Sequence record: NC_004928.1
Direction: 5' to 3' (one strand)
Source: Escherichia phage RB69
Length of the DNA: 64,000 bases
Shown here: positions 10,137 through 63,865 of the stretch, piece after piece
Numbering within the stretch: the first letter of the stretch is position 1
Layout: every line of letters starts with the position of its first letter
Translations under genes and position numbers: made by a program
Notes under the pieces: model-generated
What the model was told of the DNA's origin: nothing
The model's input: the letters and a program-made list of their open reading frames with translations, nothing else
The model's database searches: none

Positions 10137-10777
10137 TGAATAAACCCGAGTTACTTATTGAAACTTGGGGTCAACCCGGTGAGATTATTGATGGCGTTCC
10201 AATGTTGGAATCTCATGATGGAAAAGATTCTGGCTTAAAACCAGGGCTTTATATAGAAGGTATTTTTCTTCAGGCAGAGGTTGTTAACCGAAATAAACGT
10301 TTATATCCTAAACGCGTTTTGGAAAAAGCAGTAAGTGACTATATTAAAGAACAAGTCGCAACCAAACAAGCCCTTGGAGAATTAAACCATCCACCTCGCG
10401 CAAATGTTGACCCTATGCAAGCCGCTATCATTATTGAAGATATGTGGTGGAAAGGAAACGATGTATATGGACGCGCTAGAATTATTGAAGGCGACCATGG
10501 TCCCGGCGATAAATTAGCTGCTAATATACGAGCTGGTTGGATTCCAGGTGTTTCCTCTCGTGGTCTTGGTTCTTTAACCGACACCAATAAAGGGTACCGT
10601 ATCGTGAACGAAGGATTTAAATTAACCGTCGGCGTAGATGCCGTATGGGGACCTTCTGCTCCAGATGCTTGGGTTACTCCTAAACAAATATCAGAATCAG
10701 AAAATTCGGTGGAAATCACCAAAAACAGTGCTGACGAAGCATTTAAAGCTCTCGCAGAGAGTTTAAAAGCATTATAA
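10136..10777 (+). CDS. 21: Prohead core protease gp21
   Basis: 213 aa; near-identical to recalled T4 gp21 (LLIETWGQPGEIIDGVPMLESHDGKD...). Confidence 0.95.
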   Translation: MNKPELLIETWGQPGEIIDGVPMLESHDGKDSGLKPGLYIEGIFLQAEVVNRNKRLYPKRVLEKAVSDYIKEQVATKQALGELNHPPRANVDPMQAAIIIEDMWWKGNDVYGRARIIEGDHGPGDKLAANIRAGWIPGVSSRGLGSLTDTNKGYRIVNEGFKLTVGVDAVWGPSAPDAWVTPKQISESENSVEITKNSADEAFKALAESLKAL

Positions 10778-10780
10778 ATA
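10773..10780 (+). promoter_or_regulatory. Late promoter TATAAATA upstream of gene 22
   Basis: Exact TATAAATA overlapping the gene 21 stop, about 30 nt upstream of the gene 22 ATG. Confidence 0.6.
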
Positions 10781-10810
10781 ATAATGTAATCTAAACCACA
10801 GGACACTAAA

Positions 10811-11623
10811 ATGATCAAAAGAACAATTTTGAAAGAAGCTCAGAATATCGAGACTTCAGTTGCTCTTAATAGTGTTTTCGAATCAGTAGAACTGTCTCCG
10901 GACGTTAAAGCTAATTTCAGCACTGTATTCGAAGCCACCGTTAAGCAGGAAGCAGTCAAACTGGCTGAATCTCATATCAAAGCCATCGCCGAAAAAGCCG
11001 AAGAAGAAGTTGAAAAGGCTAAAGAAGATGCTGAAGAGAAAGCTGATAAAAAATTGGCTGAACAAGCTTCTAAATTCCTGGACCATCTTGCAAAAGAATG
11101 GCTCGCAGAAAACCAAATCGCAGTTGATAAAGGCATTAAAGCTGATTTGTTCGAATCCATGCTTGGTGGTCTGAAAGAACTGTTTGTTGAACATAACGTT
11201 GTTGTTCCAGAAGAATCTGTAGATGTTGTAGCAGAAATGGAAGAAGAGCTGGCCGAACATAAAGAAGAAACCGCTCGTTTGTTCGAAGAAGTTACCAAAC
11301 GTGATGCATATATCAATTACGTTCAGCGTGAAACCGCTATTAATGAAAGCGTGAAAGACCTGACTGAATCTCAGAAAGAAAAAGTTATTGGCCTGGTTGA
11401 AGGTATGGATTATTCTGACGCATTTGGTACTAAGTTAACTGCTATTGTAGAAATGGTTAAAGGTTCTACTAAAGAAGAAGCCGCTATTACCGAAAGTATA
11501 AATACAGTTGACAATGACGCTGCCGGTCTTAATTTTGTTGCCGAAGCAGTTGACACTACCACAACTCAGGTAGAACAGAATTCTAATGTAAGTTTATATG
11601 CGAAAGTCGCATCTCGTTTCTAA
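10811..11623 (+). CDS. 22: Prohead core scaffold protein gp22
   Basis: 270 aa, acidic and coiled-coil rich; synteny. Confidence 0.9.
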   Translation: MIKRTILKEAQNIETSVALNSVFESVELSPDVKANFSTVFEATVKQEAVKLAESHIKAIAEKAEEEVEKAKEDAEEKADKKLAEQASKFLDHLAKEWLAENQIAVDKGIKADLFESMLGGLKELFVEHNVVVPEESVDVVAEMEEELAEHKEETARLFEEVTKRDAYINYVQRETAINESVKDLTESQKEKVIGLVEGMDYSDAFGTKLTAIVEMVKGSTKEEAAITESINTVDNDAAGLNFVAEAVDTTTTQVEQNSNVSLYAKVASRF

Positions 11624-53310: not shown

Positions 53311-53318
53311 TATAAATA
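53311..53318 (+). promoter_or_regulatory. Late promoter TATAAATA upstream of gene 34
   Basis: Exact motif about 35 nt upstream of the gene 34 ATG. Confidence 0.6.
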
Positions 53319-53352: not shown

Positions 53353-56300
53353 ATGGTTGACATCAAACGTAAGTTCAGGGCCGAAGATGGTCTTGACGCA
53401 GGCGGTGATAAGATAGTTAACGTTGCGCTTGCTGACCGCACAGTTGGCACCGATGGCGTGAACGTTGACTTTTTGGTGCAAGAAAACACCGTACAGAATT
53501 ATGACGAGACGCGCGCGTATACAAAAGATTTTATTGTTCTTTATGATAATCGTTTTTATCAAGCTTTAAGCGATATTCCAGCTCCGGCAGGCCCTTTCTC
53601 TTTGGCTAAATGGAAGGCAACTCGTACAGATGCAGAATGGATTACAGTTCAAGGCGGAGATTTCCAATTATCAGTAGGTAACTCTATTGCGGTTGATACT
53701 TCAGCTGGCATTGATATTAATTTCACTTTGCCTCAAAATCCTTTAGATGGCGATACAGTTATTTTGTCTGATATTGGCGGTAGAGTAGGCTATGTAAAAG
53801 TTCAAATTACTGCAGAGGCTCAAAGTATTGTAAACTTTAGAGGACAACAGGTTCGTTCAGTTTTAATGACGCACCCAAAATCTAAAATAGTATTCATTTT
53901 TAGCAACCGCCTATGGCAAATGTATGTTTCTGATTATGAACGTAATGCAGTCACAGTAACTCCTGCTAAGCCATATCAGGCGCAACCTAACGATTTTATC
54001 ATTCGACGTTTTACATCAGCCGCTCCTATTAATATTACATTGCCTCGCAATGCTAATAATGGCGATATTATTAATTTAGTTGATTTAGACAAATTAAACC
54101 CGTTATATCACACAATTGTCAAAACTTACGATGATACAACTTCTATACGAGAAGCCGGTGTTCATGTAGCAGAAGGACGTAATACTGCAGAAGCGTTCTT
54201 TGTTTATGATTCTGCTAATAGCTTATGGCGTGTTTGGGAAGGTGACCAGAAATCTCGTTTACGTATAGTTCGTAATGATACTGATTTACGCCCTAATGAA
54301 GAAGTTCTTGTTTTTGGAACTAATAATGATACAATCTCGACGGTAAATCTTACTTTGCCTACAGATATTTTGTCTGGTGATACTGTTAAAATATCGTTGA
54401 ATTATATGCGTAAAGGGCAAACTGTAAAAATTAAAGCTGCTGAAGGCGATACAATTGCTAGCAGTATTTCTTTATTACAGTTCCCAAAACGTTCAGAGTA
54501 TCCACCTGATGCACAATGGGTTTCTGTTAGTGAGCTGGAATTTAATGGCGATACTTCGTATGTCCCTGTACTTGAGTTGGCTTATATAGAAGATTATTCA
54601 TCTGAAACAAAATATTGGGTAGTTCAACAAAACACTGTAACCGTCGAACGAGTCGATGCATCGAGCAATACAACTCGAGCTCGTTTAGGTGTTATTGCTC
54701 TTGCTTCTCAAGCACAAGCAAATGTTGATTTAGAAAATGCTCCTGGTAAAGAACTGGCTATTACTCCGGAAACATTAGCAAATCGTACAGCAACTGAAAC
54801 TCGTCGCGGTATTGCTCGTATTGCAACAACTGCACAAGTTAACCAGAATACCGATTTTGCATTCCAGGACGATTTGATTATTTCTCCTAAGAAATTGAAC
54901 GAACGTACAGCAACTGAAACCCGTAGAGGTGTTGCTGAAGTTGCAACTCAGGCTGAAACTAATGCTGGAACAGATGATACCACTATTATTACTCCTAAGA
55001 AATTGGATGCCCGTCAAGGTTCTGAAGTTTTATCTGGTATTGTAAAATACACATCTACGACTGGTACTACAGCTGCTACTGTTCGTGGTAATGCTGGGAC
55101 TAACGTTTATAACAAAGCCGTAGATAATTTAACTATTTCTCCAAAGGCTCTTGACCAGTATAAAGCTACCCATACTCAACAGGGCGCAGTAATTCTTGCT
55201 ATTGAAAGTGAAGTTATCGCTGGCGAATCACAAGCCGGTTGGGCTAATGCTGTAGTGACCCCTGAAACTCTGCATAAGAAAACTTCTACTGATGGACGTA
55301 TTGGTTTAATTGAAATTGCTACGCAAGCAGAAACTAACACTGGAACTGATTATACTAGAGCAGTAACGCCTAAGACGTTAAATGATAGGAAAGCTACGGA
55401 AGGATTATCCGGCATAGCCGAAATTGCTACGCAAGTTGAATTTGATACTGGAACTGACGATACTCGTATCTCGTCTCCACTGAAAATTAAAACTCATTTT
55501 GATTCTTCTGACCGTACCAGTGTTAATTCTGATTCCGGACTTATTGAAGAAGGAACCTTGTGGAACCATTATACTCTTGATATTTCTAAAGCAAATGAAA
55601 CACAACGCGGTACACTTCGCGTAGCGACCCAGGCAGAATCTAATGCAGGAACTTTAGATGATGTTCTTATTACTCCTAAAAAGCTTTTAGGGACTAAGTC
55701 CACTGAAACGTCTGAAGGCGTGATTAAGGTTGCTACTCAGGCTGAAACTGTAACAGGAACTTCTGCTAATACTGCTGTATCACCTAAGAATTTAAAATGG
55801 ATTGTTCAATCAGAACCATCATGGACTGCTACTACGGCAATTCGTGGATTCGTTAAAACTTCATCTGGTTCTATTACATTTGTCGGTGACGATACTCAAG
55901 GTAATACCCAGGATTTGAATCTTTATGAGAAAAATAGTTATGCTATTTCTCCATATGAATTAAACCGTGTACTTGCTAACTACTTACCGTTGAAAGCTAA
56001 AGCAGCTGATAGTAATTTGTTAGATGGTCTAGATTCTCTTCAGTTCATCCGTAGAGACATCGACCAGACGGTTAATGGTTCTTTAAGTCTTACTAAACAG
56101 ACCAACCTGAGTGCTCCTTTAGTATCTACAAGCACCGCTTCTTTTGGTTCCGAAGCATCTGTTACTCGTAGATTAACTCTTAATGACTCTAGCGGTTCCG
56201 AAATAGTTTTCACTAAAGGAACCCAATCTCTTAGTAATAAAGAGAATTTCGTTGTTAGAGCATGGGGTAATAGCGCTACAGCTGGTGACCGTGATACAGT

Positions 56301-57186
56301 ATTTGAAGCGGGTGACGAAACCGGATACCATTTCTATTCTCAGCGCGCTGCTGATAATAAAGTATCATTTAATATTAATGGAACACTTTATTCAACAGGT
56401 ATTGTTTCTACAAATGGATTAAATGTTACAGGTGTTTCTACCTTTACCGGGCCTATTAGTGCTACAGGCGAAATTGTTTCTAGTTCTCCTATTGCATTCA
56501 GAGCTATTAACGGTAACTATGGTGTTATGCTTTATAACGCTGGTAACAGTTCTTATATTGCATTAACTAACTCAGGTGACCAGACCGGGACGTTTAATAA
56601 CTTACGCCCGATCACGATTAACAATGCCACAGGATTAGTTCGTCTTGACAACGGTGTTCAAATCACAAGTGGTGCAACAATAACTACCGGTGGGTTAACT
56701 GTAAATAACAGGATTATTTCTAACGGCGTTAAAACTGCCACGGTTTATACCGATAAACCAACAGCTTCTACTGTAGGTTTTTGGTCTATTGACATTAACG
56801 ATTCTGCTGTATATAGCCAATTCCCTGGATACTGGACGCGTGATAACAAAGGTAACCGTGACCAAGAAATTAAATATCCTGGTACTTTGACTCAATTCGG
56901 CAATAGCTTAGATTCGCTTTATCAGGATTGGATTTGTTATCCTACAGGTGCAAATGGTGGTAGTATTCGATATACTCGTACCTGGCAGAAAAATAAAGAC
57001 GCTTGGACCTCATTTGCAATGGTATTTGATAGTGGCAACCCACCTTCACCTAGCGATGTCGGTGCTATCCCATCCGATAATGCTGTGATTGGAAACCTTA
57101 CTGTTCGAGACTTCTTACAATTAGGAAATGTGAGAATTGTTCCAGACCCGGTTAACAAAACCGTTAAATTTATATGGGTTGAATAA
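53353..57186 (+). CDS. 34: Long tail fibre proximal subunit gp34
   Basis: 1277 aa; internal fibre repeats; position as T4 gene 34. Confidence 0.9.
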   Translation: MVDIKRKFRAEDGLDAGGDKIVNVALADRTVGTDGVNVDFLVQENTVQNYDETRAYTKDFIVLYDNRFYQALSDIPAPAGPFSLAKWKATRTDAEWITVQGGDFQLSVGNSIAVDTSAGIDINFTLPQNPLDGDTVILSDIGGRVGYVKVQITAEAQSIVNFRGQQVRSVLMTHPKSKIVFIFSNRLWQMYVSDYERNAVTVTPAKPYQAQPNDFIIRRFTSAAPINITLPRNANNGDIINLVDLDKLNPLYHTIVKTYDDTTSIREAGVHVAEGRNTAEAFFVYDSANSLWRVWEGDQKSRLRIVRNDTDLRPNEEVLVFGTNNDTISTVNLTLPTDILSGDTVKISLNYMRKGQTVKIKAAEGDTIASSISLLQFPKRSEYPPDAQWVSVSELEFNGDTSYVPVLELAYIEDYSSETKYWVVQQNTVTVERVDASSNTTRARLGVIALASQAQANVDLENAPGKELAITPETLANRTATETRRGIARIATTAQVNQNTDFAFQDDLIISPKKLNERTATETRRGVAEVATQAETNAGTDDTTIITPKKLDARQGSEVLSGIVKYTSTTGTTAATVRGNAGTNVYNKAVDNLTISPKALDQYKATHTQQGAVILAIESEVIAGESQAGWANAVVTPETLHKKTSTDGRIGLIEIATQAETNTGTDYTRAVTPKTLNDRKATEGLSGIAEIATQVEFDTGTDDTRISSPLKIKTHFDSSDRTSVNSDSGLIEEGTLWNHYTLDISKANETQRGTLRVATQAESNAGTLDDVLITPKKLLGTKSTETSEGVIKVATQAETVTGTSANTAVSPKNLKWIVQSEPSWTATTAIRGFVKTSSGSITFVGDDTQGNTQDLNLYEKNSYAISPYELNRVLANYLPLKAKAADSNLLDGLDSLQFIRRDIDQTVNGSLSLTKQTNLSAPLVSTSTASFGSEASVTRRLTLNDSSGSEIVFTKGTQSLSNKENFVVRAWGNSATAGDRDTVFEAGDETGYHFYSQRAADNKVSFNINGTLYSTGIVSTNGLNVTGVSTFTGPISATGEIVSSSPIAFRAINGNYGVMLYNAGNSSYIALTNSGDQTGTFNNLRPITINNATGLVRLDNGVQITSGATITTGGLTVNNRIISNGVKTATVYTDKPTASTVGFWSIDINDSAVYSQFPGYWTRDNKGNRDQEIKYPGTLTQFGNSLDSLYQDWICYPTGANGGSIRYTRTWQKNKDAWTSFAMVFDSGNPPSPSDVGAIPSDNAVIGNLTVRDFLQLGNVRIVPDPVNKTVKFIWVE

Positions 57187-57194
57187 GAGGTTAT

Positions 57195-58319
57195 ATGGAA
57201 AAATTTATGGCAAGGTTTGGACAGGGATACGTCCAAACGCCGTTTTTATCGGAAAGCAATTCAGTTAGATTTAAGCTAAGTATAGCGGGTTCATGCCCGC
57301 TTTCAACAACTAATCCGTATATTTTGTTCCAAAACGAGCCTTTAGGGTTGCAGTCTTTTGGTATTGGACTAAATGTTAGGGTGATAAATCCGGAAAATGG
57401 AACTATAGTTGATAGTAAATTATACAATTTTGCGCCTACAAATAATGCAACTTCAGCTGCATTTATTTCGTTTGTTAATACATACGCAGATAATTTCATT
57501 TTCGCATTTATTTCTAATAACAAATTTAATTTGCCGCCAGAAATAATTGAATGGTTTAAAGCTGCTGGGAGTTCAGTTATACCGTCAATTGAAGTTGCTA
57601 GTCTTGTTGATATTTCATATTCAGCGTTTTATGTTTCAGGTAAAAATACTATTGCATTAGAACACATAAAATACAGTAATAAGAAAACAATTTCTGATTA
57701 CGCAACTCCATTAGATATTGTATATGACTCTATTGCTGATATAGGTGCTACCGGCTATCCTAGACGTACATATGAAGCTCTAGAAACGTTTTTATCTCCT
57801 GTTGGAGGAACTAACAATGAAATAAAAAGGGTGCCTACATCATCCCTTGTTACTCCTATCGCAAACTATGGATTAAAGCCTACAGATTTTCTTTATTTGA
57901 AATTTCAATTAATGGCTGATGAAGAATTATTAGAGGAAGGAACCACAAGACTTTCAATTCGTTTCTTTAAGTCTCCATCTAGCTCTCCTATATCATCTAA
58001 AGATATAAACTTTGATGGAACTGCCGGGGAGTGGAAGCTATATGAAGAATACGTTGAAATACCAGCTGAAGCTGATGGCTTTACAGTATATTGTTACCGT
58101 ACGGCCTCAGTCGGTCAAGGTGGACTAAGAAATGTTATTTTCACTGAAGTATCATGTAACGGAAGTATAGCAAAACCCGCCGAGTTTGGTATAAACGGTA
58201 TTCGTGTTAATTACATTGATGAATCATTAACCGGTAATGATATAATGGACTTGCCTACTCAGTTATCTAACGACACAGGTAAGGTATTTGGGCAGGAATT
58301 TAAAGAGTACACAGAATAA
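57195..58319 (+). CDS. 35: Long tail fibre hinge protein gp35
   Basis: 374 aa; synteny. Confidence 0.85.
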   Translation: MEKFMARFGQGYVQTPFLSESNSVRFKLSIAGSCPLSTTNPYILFQNEPLGLQSFGIGLNVRVINPENGTIVDSKLYNFAPTNNATSAAFISFVNTYADNFIFAFISNNKFNLPPEIIEWFKAAGSSVIPSIEVASLVDISYSAFYVSGKNTIALEHIKYSNKKTISDYATPLDIVYDSIADIGATGYPRRTYEALETFLSPVGGTNNEIKRVPTSSLVTPIANYGLKPTDFLYLKFQLMADEELLEEGTTRLSIRFFKSPSSSPISSKDINFDGTAGEWKLYEEYVEIPAEADGFTVYCYRTASVGQGGLRNVIFTEVSCNGSIAKPAEFGINGIRVNYIDESLTGNDIMDLPTQLSNDTGKVFGQEFKEYTE

Positions 58320-58344: not shown

Positions 58345-58352
58345 TATAAATA
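58345..58352 (+). promoter_or_regulatory. Late promoter TATAAATA upstream of gene 36
   Basis: Exact motif about 27 nt upstream of the gene 36 ATG. Confidence 0.6.
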
Positions 58353-58378: not shown

Positions 58379-59035
58379 ATGGCCGATTTAAAAGCCGGAA
58401 GTACAGTTGGTGGTTCCGTCATATGGCATCAAGGCAATTTTCCTTTAATGCCAGCTGGCGACGACATCCTATATAAAACATTTAAATTATACACTGAATA
58501 TAACAAGCCAAAAGCGGCTGATAACGATTTCGTATCTAAAGCAAATGGTGGGACATATCTCAAAAAGGTAATCTTTAACGAAGGTGTTGCAGTCAAAACA
58601 GCAGATGACCAAACGAATGGTATTTTTTCTGGTGGTGGTGACGCCGCGACATTCGACCAAACAAACATGGATATTGTTTCGTGGTATGGTATTGGGTTTA
58701 AATCATCTCAAGGTACAGGTGAAAGAACTGTTGTAATTGATACTCGCACCGGTAATATAAGTTCTAAAGGCGTTATTGAAGCATCTCAATTCAGAGCCAC
58801 AACGTTAGCACCTTTAAATAATTACGACCTTACTCGCAAAGATTATGTTGATAGTCAAATAAATACAGTTAATGCTAATGCAAACAGTCGTGTACTCCGT
58901 TCAGGAGATACGATGACCGGCGCGCTAACCGCCCCAAACTTTTTCTCACAGAATCCTGCATCTCAACCCTCGCATGTTCCACGATTTGATCAAATTGTTA
59001 TTAAGGATTCTGTTCAAGATTTCGGCTATTATTAA
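58379..59035 (+). CDS. 36: Long tail fibre distal connector gp36
   Basis: 218 aa; synteny. Confidence 0.85.
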   Translation: MADLKAGSTVGGSVIWHQGNFPLMPAGDDILYKTFKLYTEYNKPKAADNDFVSKANGGTYLKKVIFNEGVAVKTADDQTNGIFSGGGDAATFDQTNMDIVSWYGIGFKSSQGTGERTVVIDTRTGNISSKGVIEASQFRATTLAPLNNYDLTRKDYVDSQINTVNANANSRVLRSGDTMTGALTAPNFFSQNPASQPSHVPRFDQIVIKDSVQDFGYY

Positions 59036-59043
59036 GAGGACTT

Positions 59044-62000
59044 ATGGCTACTTTAAAACAAATACAATTTAAAAGAAGCAAAACTGCAGGAGCACGTCCT
59101 GCCGCTTCAGTATTAGCCGAAGGTGAATTGGCTATAAACTTAAAAGACCGTGTACTTTTTACTAAAGATGACCAAGGAAATATTATTGATCTGGGTTTTG
59201 CTAAAGGTGGTAGTATTGACGGGAATGTTATTCATACTGGCAATTATAACCAAACTGGCGATTATACTTTAAATGGCACCTTCACTCAGACAGGTAATTT
59301 TAATTTAACCGGTATTGCTCGAGTAACTCGTGATATTATTGCCGCTGGGCAGATTATGACTGAAGGCGGTGAACTTATTACAAAAAGTTCAGGTACAGCA
59401 CATGTTCGTTTTCATGATTCGGCTGATCGTGAACGTGGCATTATTTATGCACCGGCTAATGATGGATTAACTACGCAAGTAGTTAATATCCGCGTTAAAG
59501 ACTACGCCGCTGGTGATGAAAGCACCTATGCATTTTCGGGCAGTGGACTATTTACTTCACCTGAAGTGTCAGCATGGAAATCTATGTCAACTCCTCAGAT
59601 TTTGACAAATAGAGTTATTACTAATAATAAATCTACGAGCGATTATGACATTTATTCTATGGCAGACAACGTTCCATTGTCTGAAAGCACTACTGCTATT
59701 AATCATCTCCGTGTTATGCGCAATGCTGTAGGCGCTGGTGTATTCCATGAAGTTAAAGATAATGATGGAATAACTTGGTATACTGGAGATGGCTTAGACA
59801 CTTATCTTTGGTCGTTTACCTGGTCCGGTGGATTGAAAGCAGGCCATTCTATTTCTGTTGGTACTCCTGGTGGCAATAAAGGATACTCTGAATTAGGGAC
59901 TGCTTCAATTTCTCTTGGCGATAATGATACAGGCTTAAAATGGCATCAAGATGGATATTATTTCAGCGTTAATAATGGAATAAAAACGTTTTTATTTAGT
60001 CCCAACGAAACAACTAGCCTAAGAAAATTTGTAGCTGGATATTCTACCACCGGAACCGATTTAACTACTCCTCCAACTGAAAACTATGCTTTGGCCACTG
60101 TTGTTACTTACCATGATAATAACGCGTTTGGAGACGGTCAGACTCTTTTAGGATATTATCAAGGCGGTAACTATCATCATTATTTTCGCGGTAAGGGTAC
60201 TACAAACATTAATACTCACGGCGGTTTGTTAGTTACTCCAGGTAATATTGATGTTATTGGCGGTTCTGTTAATATCGATGGTAGAAATAATTCTTCTACA
60301 CTGATGTTTAGAGGTAACACGACCGGAGCTAGTTCAGTTGATAATATGACAATTTCCGTTTGGGGCAATACGTTTACTAATCCTAATGTAGGTAATCGTA
60401 AAAACGTCATGGAAATTTCTGATGCAACTAGCTGGATGAGCTATATTCAAAGACTTACTACTGGTGAAGTAGAAATGAACGTTAATGGTTCATTTGAATC
60501 ATCTGGTGTTACTGCTGGAGATAGGGGAGTTCACACAACAGGCGAAATTTCATCTGGGGCTGTGAATGCGCTTCGTATTTGGAATAATGATTATGGAGCC
60601 ATTTTTAGACGTTCAGAAGGCAGTCTTCATATTATTCCAACTGCTTATGGTGAAGGTAAACATGGTGATATCGGTCCACTTCGCCCGTTTAGTATGGCTT
60701 TAGATACCGGTAAAGTTACTATTCCAGATTTACAATCAAGTTACAATACGTTCGCTGCGAACGGCTATATTAAATTTGTTGGTCATGGCGCTGGCGCTGG
60801 TGGTTATGATATTCAATATGTTCAAGCGGCTCCTATTTTCCAGGAAATCGATGATGATGCTGTAAGTAAATATTATCCTATTGTTAAGCAGAAGTTTTTA
60901 AACGGTAAAGCAGTTTGGTCTTTAGGTACTGAAATTAATTCGGGTACATTTGTTTTACACCATATCAAAGAAGATGGATCACAAGGCCATACATCTCGTT
61001 TTAATCAAGACGGCACAGTTAATTTCCCTGATAATGTTCAGGTTGGTGGTGGTGAAGCTACTATTGCTCGCAACGGTAACATCTGGTCTGATATCTGGAA
61101 AACGTTTACTTCTGCCGGTGATGTAACTAATATCCATGACGCTATTGCTACTCGTGTTGCCAAAGAAGGTGATACGATGACAGGCCGCTTAACTCTTAAT
61201 GCAAACTCGGATGTTATTGTTATTAACAGTGCTGCAACCGAATCTGGCTATTTGAAAGGACAAAAAGCCGGCGTTGATAACTGGTATGTAGGTAATGGTG
61301 GGGCTGATAATGCCATATCGTTTTATAGTTTCCGAAATAATTCAGGCATAAATGTTAATAATGGTGGCGATATTGCTTTAAACCCAGAAGGGTCCGCCAC
61401 TTTTAATTTTAATAAGGACCGACTTTATATAAATGGTTCGGTTTGGACCTCACACCAGGCCGGCGATTGGGGAAATCAATGGCGCCAGGAAGCTCCTGTA
61501 TTTGTGGATTTTGGCTACGTCGGTAATGATAGTTATTATCCAATTATCAAAGGAAAATCTGGTATTACTAACGAAGGATATTTTTCAGGCGTTGATTTTG
61601 GTATGCGACGCATTCCTAATAACTGGGCACAAGGTATTATTCGTGTTGGTAACCAGGAAAATGCTAGCGATCCGCAAGCTATCTTCGAATTCCACCATAA
61701 TGGAAACATGTACGTTCCTGACATGGTTAAAGCTGGAGTAAGATTATCAGCTGGTGGAGGTGACCCTGCATGGACAGGCGCATGTGTTGTTATTGGTGAT
61801 AATGACACTGGGTTAGTTCATGGCGGTGACGGTCGTATTAACATGGTTGCAAATGGAGTGCATATTGCTTCGTGGTCAGCTGCTTATCAGATCCATGAAG
61901 GTCTTTGGGATTCAACTGGTGCTTTATGGACTGAAACAGGAAGAGCTATTATTTCTTATGGGCATTTAGTCCAACAAAGTGATGCCTATTCCACATATGT

Positions 62001-62355
62001 CCGCGATGTTTATGTCCGCTCTGATATTCGTGTTAAAAAGAACCTCGTTAAATTTGAAAATGCTTCTGAGAAGCTTTCTAAAATTAACGGTTACACTTAT
62101 ATGCAGAAGCGAGGCCTAGATGAAGAAGGCAATCAGAAATGGGAACCTAACGCCGGTTTAATTGCTCAAGAAGTTCAAGCTATTTTACCAGAATTAGTTG
62201 AAGGCGACCCGGATGGTGAAGCTTTACTTCGTTTGAACTATAACGGTGTAATTGGTTTAAATACAGCTGCAATCAATGAGCATACTGCAGAAATTGCAGA
62301 ACTTAAGTCAGAGATTGAAGAGCTTAAAAAATTAGTTAAATCATTGTTAAAATAA
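59044..62355 (+). CDS. 37: Long tail fibre distal subunit gp37, with a C-terminal intramolecular-chaperone (S74-like) domain
   Basis: 1103 aa; C-terminal SDIRVKKNL...coiled-coil tail typical of self-cleaving chaperone domains (T2-type). Confidence 0.88.
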
Positions 62356-62360
62356 TAAGA

Positions 62361-62374
62361 GGGGCTTCGGCCCC
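62361..62374 (+). promoter_or_regulatory. UUCG hairpin (GGGGC-UUCG-GCCCC) between genes 37 and 38
   Basis: Read directly; followed by the GGAGG Shine-Dalgarno. Confidence 0.5.
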
Positions 62375-62386
62375 TTGGAGGTGTAT

Positions 62387-63160
62387 ATGGCAGTTGAAGG
62401 ACCGTGGGTAGGATGGTCTGCAAGGGTACAGACTGGAGATCCTTGGATGGGTGGTGCCGCACAGAGATTGAGAATGGGAATTCCGTTTTGGATGAGTAAT
62501 ATGATAGGTCGATCTGTTGAAGTAATTCACACGCTTGGAGCAGACCATAACTTCAATGGTCAATGGTTCCGAGATAGATGTTTTGAGGCAGGTAGTGCAC
62601 CTATAGTGTTTAATATCACCGGAAATTTGGTATCATATAGTAAAGATGTTCCATTATTCTTTATGTATGGCGATACACCAAATGAATATGTTACTTTGAA
62701 TATTCATGGTGGAGTTCATATGTGGGGACGAGGTGGTAACGGTACTGTAAACGGAAACCCAGGCACAAATGGCGGCGATGTAATCCAAAATGATATCGGC
62801 GGAAGACTTCGTATTTGGAACTATGGCGTTATTGCATCAGGCGGCGGTGGTGGTGGTGCAGTGTCATTACAGAATAGCTGGGCGCCAAATGCTACAGCAG
62901 GCGGCGGTGGTGGTAGACCATTTGGCATCGGCGGAGGCGGCGTTAATTGGCCGGGTGGTAATGCTAGTTATGACGCCCCGGGCGGTGCCGGTTACACTTC
63001 CCAATTCGGCGGAGGCAATGGCGGTGATGCTGGAGGTCGGGGCGGAGATGGATGGGGTAATCACTTATCTAGATCTGGCGGTGGTGCTCCTGGCAGAGCA
63101 GTATTCGGAAGTTCACCGTCATGGGGTGCTACAGGCACAATCTACGGCTCCTGGATTTAA
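62387..63160 (+). CDS. 38: Tail fibre adhesin gp38 (T2-type, glycine-rich motifs)
   Basis: ORF 62375..63160; start taken at MAVEGPW after the GGAGG SD; five poly-Gly motifs between variable segments. Confidence 0.85.
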
Positions 63161-63178
63161 ACGATAATACCTCTCAAT

Positions 63179-63186
63179 TATAAATA
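63179..63186 (+). promoter_or_regulatory. Late promoter TATAAATA upstream of holin t
   Basis: Exact motif about 20 nt upstream of the t ATG. Confidence 0.6.
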
Positions 63187-63205
63187 TTGATAAATGGGAG
63201 GTAAT

Positions 63206-63865
63206 ATGGCAGCACCAAAAGTATCATTTTCGCCTAGTGATATTTTATTTGGGTTGCTAGACCGCATTTTCAAAGATAACGCCTCTGGAAATATTCTTAT
63301 TTCAAGAGTTGCTGTTGTAGTTCTTTTGTTCCTAATGGCACTAATATGGTACAAAGGGAATATTTTTATGGATTATTACGTGAGGTCGAAATATGATACT
63401 TACACAGAAGTAATTCAAAAAGAAAGAAATACACGATTTGAATCTGCGGCTTTAGAACAACTACAAATAGTCCACGTCACATCAAGGGCGGATTTTAGTT
63501 CGGTGTATTCTTTCAGACCTAAAAATCTAAATTATTTCGTCGACCTTATTGCGTATGAAGGTAAGTTACCTAGCACAGTAACTGAAAAATCTATGGGAGG
63601 ATTTCCTGTCGATAAAACGACAGCAGAATATTCGGTCCATTTAAGTGGACTTCACTTTACTTCTAAAACAGATTTTGCTTTCTTACCTACCAAATCAAAA
63701 ACTCCGGAACTGGCATATATGTATAGTTGTCCTTACTTCAATTTGGATAACATATATGCGGGAACTGTTTCTATGTATTGGTATAAGGGGTCGGATGTGT
63801 TAAATGAAGAACGCTTGGCTGCAATATGCAACCAAGCAGCAAGGATATTAGGGCGGGCTAAATAA
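63206..63865 (+). CDS. t: Holin T
   Basis: ORF 63194..63865; start MAAPKVSFSPSDILFG matches recalled T4 holin T; single N-terminal TM domain. Confidence 0.9.
   Translation: MAAPKVSFSPSDILFGLLDRIFKDNASGNILISRVAVVVLLFLMALIWYKGNIFMDYYVRSKYDTYTEVIQKERNTRFESAALEQLQIVHVTSRADFSSVYSFRPKNLNYFVDLIAYEGKLPSTVTEKSMGGFPVDKTTAEYSVHLSGLHFTSKTDFAFLPTKSKTPELAYMYSCPYFNLDNIYAGTVSMYWYKGSDVLNEERLAAICNQAARILGRAK

Follow-up and report, generated by a model that had tools for sequence, protein, structure and literature searches.

Genes g37 and g38 of Escherichia phage RB69 were analyzed within a window of 64,000 nucleotides (nt) taken from sequence record NC_004928.1 (one strand, 5' to 3'; all positions are those of the window). 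They are neighboring plus-strand genes of the canonical T-even fiber operon (Table 1), with g38 lying directly 3' of g37 and 5' of the holin gene t, an order that was kept in 9/9 comparison loci. The coordinates given for both genes in an earlier note, made from the letters of the window alone, match the open reading frames (ORFs) exactly. For g38, the ATG start follows a GGAGG and agrees with all homologues, while the listed ORF start (TTG, 62375) lies upstream. By exact protein look-up, every residue of gp37 (1103) and gp38 (257) was equal to the RB69 entries, the latter carried in UniProt as Q7Y4Q7, 'Receptor-recognizing protein gp38'. The gp37-gp38 module is therefore the deposited RB69 reference sequence, and its architecture, its modular evolution and its dependence on OmpF have already been published (PMC3157838).

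Table 1 Features of the long tail fiber locus of RB69 (GRM, glycine-rich motif; HVS, hypervariable segment; aa, amino acids)
Feature	Position	Strand	Residues	Remarks
g34	53353-57186			fiber operon member
g35	57195-58319			fiber operon member
T4-type late promoter box TATAAATA	58345-58352	+		5' of g36; probably starts the g36-g37-g38 late transcript
g36	58379-59035			fiber operon member, followed by g37
g37, long tail fiber distal subunit	59044-62355	+	1103 aa plus stop	RB69 gp37 NP_861944.1; phrog_1699, 1346 bits
Conserved g37 5' end (N-terminus joining gp36)	59044-59250	+		left edge of the module; 95-100% identity to both genera
gp34-like trimerization domain in the gp37 shaft	60388-60693	+	aa 449-550	PF21446, 2.1e-07
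Mature gp37 tip	61774-62019	+	aa 911-992	homologue of the beta-helix tip of S16 gp37 that carries gp38
Peptidase_S74 intramolecular chaperone domain	62020-62352	+	aa 993-1103 (111 residues)	PF13884; predicted S993/K998 pair
Intercistronic hairpin GGGGC-UUCG-GCCCC	62361-62374	+		3' of the g37 stop, with the ribosome-binding site GGAGG of g38 (62377-62381) after it
g38, tail-fiber tip adhesin (by homology)	62387-63160	+	257 aa plus stop	ATG start; RB69 gp38 NP_861945.1
gp38 N-terminal attachment domain	62387-62506	+	aa 1-40	Gp38_N; W7, W20, W35
gp38 central segment, beta-helix by homology	62507-62722	+	aa 41-112	T6-like: 86% aa identity to T6, 36% to T2
gp38 specificity domain	62723-63109	+		GRM1-5 with HVS1-4 between them
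GRM1	62723-62743	+		gp38 glycine-rich motif
GRM2	62840-62857	+		gp38 glycine-rich motif
GRM3	62900-62926	+		gp38 glycine-rich motif
Q206 codon CAA	63002-63004	+		in HVS3; reported OmpF-allele residue
GRM4	63008-63037	+		gp38 glycine-rich motif
GRM5	63077-63109	+		gp38 glycine-rich motif
Late promoter box of holin gene t	63179-63186	+		first TATAAATA box after 58345

The C-terminus of gp37 was matched by the Pfam family PF13884 (aa 993-1052/1103, E-value 8.2e-13, 48.9 bits against a cut-off of 22). The match opens with S993-D-I-R-V-K998, which fits the pattern S-D-x-R-x-K and contains the predicted nucleophile S993 (codon 62020-62022) and the predicted base K998 (codon 62035-62037). The C-terminal tail ends in an amphipathic helix and was aligned with the last helix of the chaperone domain in gp37 of Salmonella phage S16, and aa 911-1103 as a whole matched the tip and chaperone of S16 gp37 (6F45_A) at 1e-43. 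The earlier note had recognized an S74-type chaperone signature followed by a coiled coil at this end of the protein, where the signature and a helical tail were recovered. Among ten phages, S[DE]xRxK was found 99-117 residues from the gp37 end in every gp37 that precedes an adhesin-type gp38, and it is kept in T2, T6, RB51, Bas46 and phiC120; T4 gp37 is without it and carries eight HxH boxes in its place, compared with none in RB69 gp37. Homology between the two gp37 proteins ends near aa 640 (34% identity), leaving the T4 needle (aa ~650-1026) unmatched, and many PHROG tail-fiber families match RB69 gp37 at aa ~985-1100 only. By the Pfam match, the Ser/Lys motif and the match to 6F45_A, the gp37 C-terminus is assigned as an S74-type intramolecular chaperone, and its autoproteolytic release after folding of the trimer is predicted from what is known of the family. 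Domains of this kind are named after the chaperone of phage endosialidase, and in T2 a C-terminal gp37 piece of approximately 100-120 residues is removed during morphogenesis. Further upstream, aa 449-550 match 4UXE and 5NXF, which are crystal structures of gp34, at ~1e-11, so that a domain of the gp34 C-terminal trimerization type lies inside gp37 and the proximal and distal half-fibers have a module in common. No internal repeats were detected in gp37 by self-BLAST at E ≤ 0.01; a weak 'APxF...YYPIxK' likeness between aa ~590-640 and ~810-855 was seen indirectly, in the comparison with T4 gp37. Neither gp37 nor gp38 had a match in NCBIfam.

In gp38, two Pfam families account for nearly the whole protein, namely Gp38_N (PF21721, aa 1-40, 6.4e-20, 71.3 bits) and GP38 (PF05268, aa 45-257, 6e-83, 278.4 bits), both against a cut-off of 25, scores that lie well outside what chance would give. 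The full length (aa 1-257) belongs to phrog_2056 'host specificity' (357 bits) and aligned with the S16 gp38 structure 6F45_D (1.6e-47), and for aa 37-256 the best match among solved structures was the receptor-binding domain of PP01 gp38 (9V85_A, 4.7e-74). No similarity to T4 gp38 was found by BLASTP (best E-value 1.4), and the latter falls in another PHROG (phrog_105 'tail fiber assembly'). On these matches gp38 is identified as a tip adhesin of the T2/T6/S16 type, as the earlier note had proposed when it set the T2/T6 architecture against that of T4 and named an alignment with T4 gp38 as the result that would overturn its view. The residues W7, W20 and W35 are invariant in an alignment of six gp38 sequences and align with Trp residues of S16, where three conserved gp38 Trp plug pockets on the gp37 base (PMC6851490). 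The GenBank entry of RB69, like those of ECP52, JS10, IME281, UPEC01, phiC120 (KY703222) and others, names this product 'distal long tail fiber assembly catalyst' or 'assembly chaperone'; for an adhesin-type gp38 the 'assembly catalyst' name is wrong and was carried over from the unrelated T4 gp38.

Glycine makes up 25% of gp38 overall and 35% of its last 146 residues (aa 112-257). As described in the earlier note, the protein has 257 residues and five runs of at least three glycines (152-157, 172-176, 182-185, 208-210 and 231-233); the five glycine-rich motifs (GRMs) in the nomenclature of Trojet fall on columns that are invariant in T2 and T6. Four hypervariable segments (HVSs) lie between them, in agreement with the variable segments that had been supposed to separate the glycine motifs. 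GRM1-3 are 86-100% conserved relative to T2 and T6 (100% for GRM2 and GRM3), compared with 7-63% identity in the HVSs; for HVS2 the identity is 43% with T2 vs. 7% with T6, and for HVS3 41% vs. 22%. A polyglycine-II sandwich fold is predicted from the homology to 6F45_D and 9V85_A. Given that ten polyglycine-II helices were resolved in the S16 crystal (PMC6851490), the number five is a count of sequence motifs and not a structural one.

Identity profiles were computed gene by gene and, against nine genomes, in 100-bp bins. The surrounding 25 kb has 95-96% nt identity to the Mosigvirus phages phiC120, PhAPEC2 and Bas46, and for the flanking genes the values are 98-99% with other Mosigviruses and 64-77% with Tequatroviruses. 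Across g34, g35, g36, g37, g38 and t, nt identity was 98, 98, 99, 72, 88 and 99% to phiC120, and 98, 99, 98, 70, 90 and 99% to Bas46, whereas the corresponding values were 70, 64, 76, 84, 95 and 72% for the Tequatrovirus RB51 and 70, 64, 77, 87, 96 and 72% for ECP52 (taxonomy not given; its flanks match Tequatrovirus). In a BLAST search of a phage collection that did not return RB69, the best DNA match was PTE-Eco05 (93.7%). The phylogenetic discordance is limited to approximately 59000-63160 and was evident in both types of profile, in agreement with the recombinational mosaic suspected in the earlier note. Its left edge lies at ~58950-59000, at the universally conserved g37 5' end, where T4 reaches 97% (bin 59000) and 87% (bin 59100), and where Tequatrovirus identity is 95-100% in these two bins vs. 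73-85% just 5' of g37; the right edge lies at ~63100-63200, at the end of g38. Because both proteins are those of RB69, the backbone is that of a Mosigvirus. The 'T4-like backbone' of the earlier note thus holds at the level of the subfamily only and not at that of the genus, as the neighboring genes have 64-77% nt identity to Tequatrovirus.

Within g37, identity to a single relative swings between 55 and 100% from one 100-bp bin to another and the best relative keeps changing; in bins 61800-62000 the best identity is 76-82%, with no close relative among the nine genomes. A search with aa 901-992, the region of the gp37 tip, gave FL08 and VEc74 as nearest (96.7% aa identity), and over the last 82 residues of mature gp37 (aa 911-992) the identity of PTE-Eco05, FL31, ECP52 and RB51 is only 80-84%. 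The N-terminal type of gp38 tracks the type of the gp37 tip and chaperone, with RB69, ECP52, RB51, PTE-Eco05 and FL31 in type A and T6, phiC120 and Bas46 in type B; identity of the chaperone domain is 96-98% inside type A and 32-33% between the two types. The gp38 of phiC120 combines a type B N-terminus with a specificity domain identical to that of RB69, which places a junction near gp38 residues 45-50. The N-terminus of RB69 gp38 is itself a rare variant (E4, W10, R13, Q15, D18, P19), found besides only in ECP52 among the residue-by-residue comparisons, and together with the FL08-like tip it could represent a distinct compatibility sub-type. Modular shuffling of this kind was described by Trojet et al. 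2011 (PMC3157838). By these profiles, g37-g38 is a horizontally exchanged cassette in which the shaft, the tip with its chaperone, the gp38 attachment domain and the specificity domain have different closest relatives from two genera, since a faster clock cannot bring another genus closer than the same genus.

Regarding the receptor, aa 81-257 of gp38 are 100% identical to RB51 gp38, Q206 included, and over aa 131-257 there are 13 identical database records and 27 with at least 99% identity, among them Tequatrovirus (RB51, RB68) and Mosigvirus (phiC120). RB51 was assigned to OmpF by random barcode transposon sequencing (RB-TnSeq; 2026 preprint, bioRxiv 10.64898/2026.04.02.716166), and the same preprint reports that the switch of RB51 to OmpW both requires Q206L in HVS3 and is brought about by this change alone, and that gene swaps as well as point mutation in adhesin-type gp38 alter the receptor used. 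According to Trojet et al. 2011, RB69 and RB51 need OmpF, plus FhuA and the full core of the lipopolysaccharide (LPS) (PMC3157838). The OmpF dependence of Bas47 was complemented, and its gp38 is 98.4% identical to that of RB69 over aa 131-257; FL33 is OmpF/TolC-dependent and its specificity domain is 96.1% identical, while for FL31 gp38 the identity amounts to 96.5% over the whole protein and to 99.2% over aa 131-257, where I181L is the sole difference. A literature search on Bas46 gp38 returned no match. From this set of related domains, RB69 gp38 very probably binds OmpF. As a separate observation, the deposited gp38 sequences of RB68 (KM607004, 201-974) and RB51 (10344-11117) are identical and both have Q206; the OmpW specificity of RB68 was put down to L206 (bioRxiv 10.64898/2026.04.02.716166), so the GenBank record of RB68 lacks the allele that was described, in the stock of the laboratory concerned, as switching the receptor.

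We consider it highly probable that the module forms the receptor-recognition end of the RB69 long tail fiber, built on the T2/T6/S16 plan, encoded by an exchanged cassette and operating by the following mechanism. The late promoter at 58345 would drive transcription of g36, g37 and g38, and three gp37 chains would fold to the distal half-fiber, with the 111-residue S74 domain setting the register of the trimeric beta-helix and then cleaving itself off at S993 via the Ser993/Lys998 dyad, which would yield a mature gp37 of 992 residues. One gp38 monomer would cap the gp37 trimer, its three-helix N-terminal domain (W7, W20, W35) plugging three equivalent pockets of the gp37 base, while the C-terminal GRMs would pack as a polyglycine-II sandwich whose distal hypervariable loops would bind the extracellular loops of OmpF. 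Autocleavage, the 3:1 stoichiometry, the polyglycine-II fold and OmpF binding are here transferred from the family, through the homologous proteins of S16 and PP01, and from the literature cited.

The proposal that gp38 is instead an assembly chaperone of the T4 type, with receptor binding residing in the gp37 C-terminus, draws on database labels only (RB69, ECP52, JS10 and others) and has next to no chance of being correct: the identity with the T4-type chaperone is already refuted by the missing similarity to T4 gp38 and the separate PHROGs, gp38 shows homology to the crystallized S16 adhesin from end to end and also to the receptor-binding domain of PP01, gp37 ends in an S74 chaperone that is removable and has no HxH boxes vs. 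eight in the T4 needle, and gene swaps and point mutation in this type of gp38 shift receptor use. It is likewise very improbable that g37-g38 diverged in place by fast diversifying point mutation without horizontal exchange. The hypervariable segments do change by point mutation, Q206L alters the receptor, and several 100-bp bins are without a close relative among the nine genomes (76-82% at 61800-62000), all of which would fit such a process; however, faster evolution only lowers identity, whereas RB51 and ECP52, at 64-77% in the flanks, reach 84-87% in g37 and 95-96% in g38, and phiC120 and Bas46, of the same genus as RB69, fall from 98-99% to 70-72% in g37. The best relative, moreover, shifts from bin to bin and the tip is nearest to a third phage, FL08.

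An exchanged cassette with an OmpF-binding adhesin is thus the preferred reading, against which several points must be counted. Plating of FL31, which has a near-identical domain, drops by only ~1 log on deletion of ompF and of tolC, so that OmpF may not be the sole entry route; FhuA and the LPS core are also reported as requirements of RB69, as they are of RB51, and the same authors warn that LPS composition can act on surface proteins indirectly (Trojet et al., PMC3157838). These phenotypes, together with the retargeting of the domain to OmpW by the single change Q206L, are what could be brought forward for a main receptor other than OmpF (OmpW, OmpC, FhuA or another) or for OmpF as one of two redundant receptors. 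We regard this as unlikely, given that RB69 gp38 has Q206 and not L206, that RB51 with an identical domain was assigned to OmpF, that Bas47 (complemented for OmpF) and FL33 are so close in this domain, and that a need for OmpF was reported for RB69 itself. Room for a second receptor contact may nevertheless be left by the weak effect of the ompF deletion on FL31 and by the reported FhuA/LPS requirement of RB69. Such a contact, combined with compatibility types of gp38 attachment and gp37 tip-chaperone that limit adhesin swaps and with a sub-type represented by RB69, makes up a joint proposal that is rather improbable.

Among known systems, RB51 has the identical specificity domain on a backbone of the other genus (flanks 64-77% nt), and its gp38 has the same length and GRM/HVS layout and differs from RB69 by six substitutions in the attachment domain (aa 4-19) and by N80D. 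The S16 gp37(3)-gp38 tip (PDB 6F45) has the three Trp, the GRMs and the Ser-x4-Lys cleavage motif in common with RB69 but differs in all gp38 HVSs, and the comparison of gp37 is limited to a C-terminal S16 chain of 204 residues. PP01 gp38 (PDB 9V85; PMC12892980) has a near-identical beta-helix segment and GRM scaffold; its HVS2-4 loops, however, are unlike those of RB69 and its receptor is the Escherichia coli O157 protein OmpC, not OmpF (PMC12892980). T2 and T6 have the same gene order, S[DE]xRxK near the gp37 C-terminus and the adhesin with five GRMs and four HVSs, with gp38 identities to RB69 of 48% for T2 and 62% for T6 in the six-sequence alignment and 27-29% overall for gp37; relative to these two phages, RB69 gp38 is an intragenic chimera with a T6-like beta-helix and HVS2-3 nearer to T2. 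RB69 and T4 agree in where the genes lie and in the first ~640 residues of gp37 (34%), but T4 gp38 is an unrelated chaperone and T4 gp37 ends as an HxH-rich receptor-binding needle without an S74 domain. Peptidase_S74 domains elsewhere have the PF13884 match, S-D-x-R-x-K and the helical tail in common with RB69 gp37, in which the domain is attached to a T-even distal half-fiber.

The remaining features concern expression of the locus and its composition. Exact matches to TATAAATA numbered 19 in the window vs. 6.7 expected, and 0/100 shuffles attained 19. Near the fiber genes the boxes at 53311, 58345 and 63179 lie just 5' of g34, g36 and t, and an exact-match scan of the window placed none just 5' of g37 or g38, which argues for a g36-g37-g38 transcription unit. 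The start of t is an ATG at 63206 that follows a GGAGG and agrees with all homologues; the listed ORF start (ATG, 63194) is upstream and would fall ~7 nt past the late-promoter box. The hairpin between g37 and g38 is not a terminator, as no T-run comes after it, and it may serve in mRNA stabilization or in tuning of g38 translation. The minimum free energy fold holds a 7-bp extended version of the stem, the fold z-score of the 46-nt context is only -1.4, and a hairpin whose stem and loop differ in sequence (e.g., GGGGG-AAAT-GCCCCC) occupies the same spot in T2, T6, phiC120 and Bas46. GC content is 0.47-0.51 over 62500-63250 vs. ~0.35-0.41 in neighboring genes and GC skew is strongly positive, both of which are due to the GGN codons for glycine in g38. 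This composition also gives rise to long but spurious ORFs in the remaining frames (62790-63167 on the plus strand, 62867-63064 on the minus strand), and the out-of-frame ORF 62790-63167 and the antisense ORFs within g38 were accordingly rejected as genes and taken as by-products of G-rich coding. In gp35, aa 58-131 matched the Pfam family ILEI ('Interleukin-like EMT inducer', PF15711, 30.2 bits against a cut-off of 27, E-value 6.3e-07), a surprising family name for the hinge protein of a tail fiber.

Two corrections follow for this locus: the genus of the backbone is Mosigvirus and not that of T4 proper, and the 'assembly catalyst' label does not apply to its gp38. In most T-even phages, host range is determined mainly by the gp37-gp38 tip, which is also a target when phages are engineered for a chosen specificity, and the g37-g38 module of RB69 offers a clean worked example of cassette exchange across genera.

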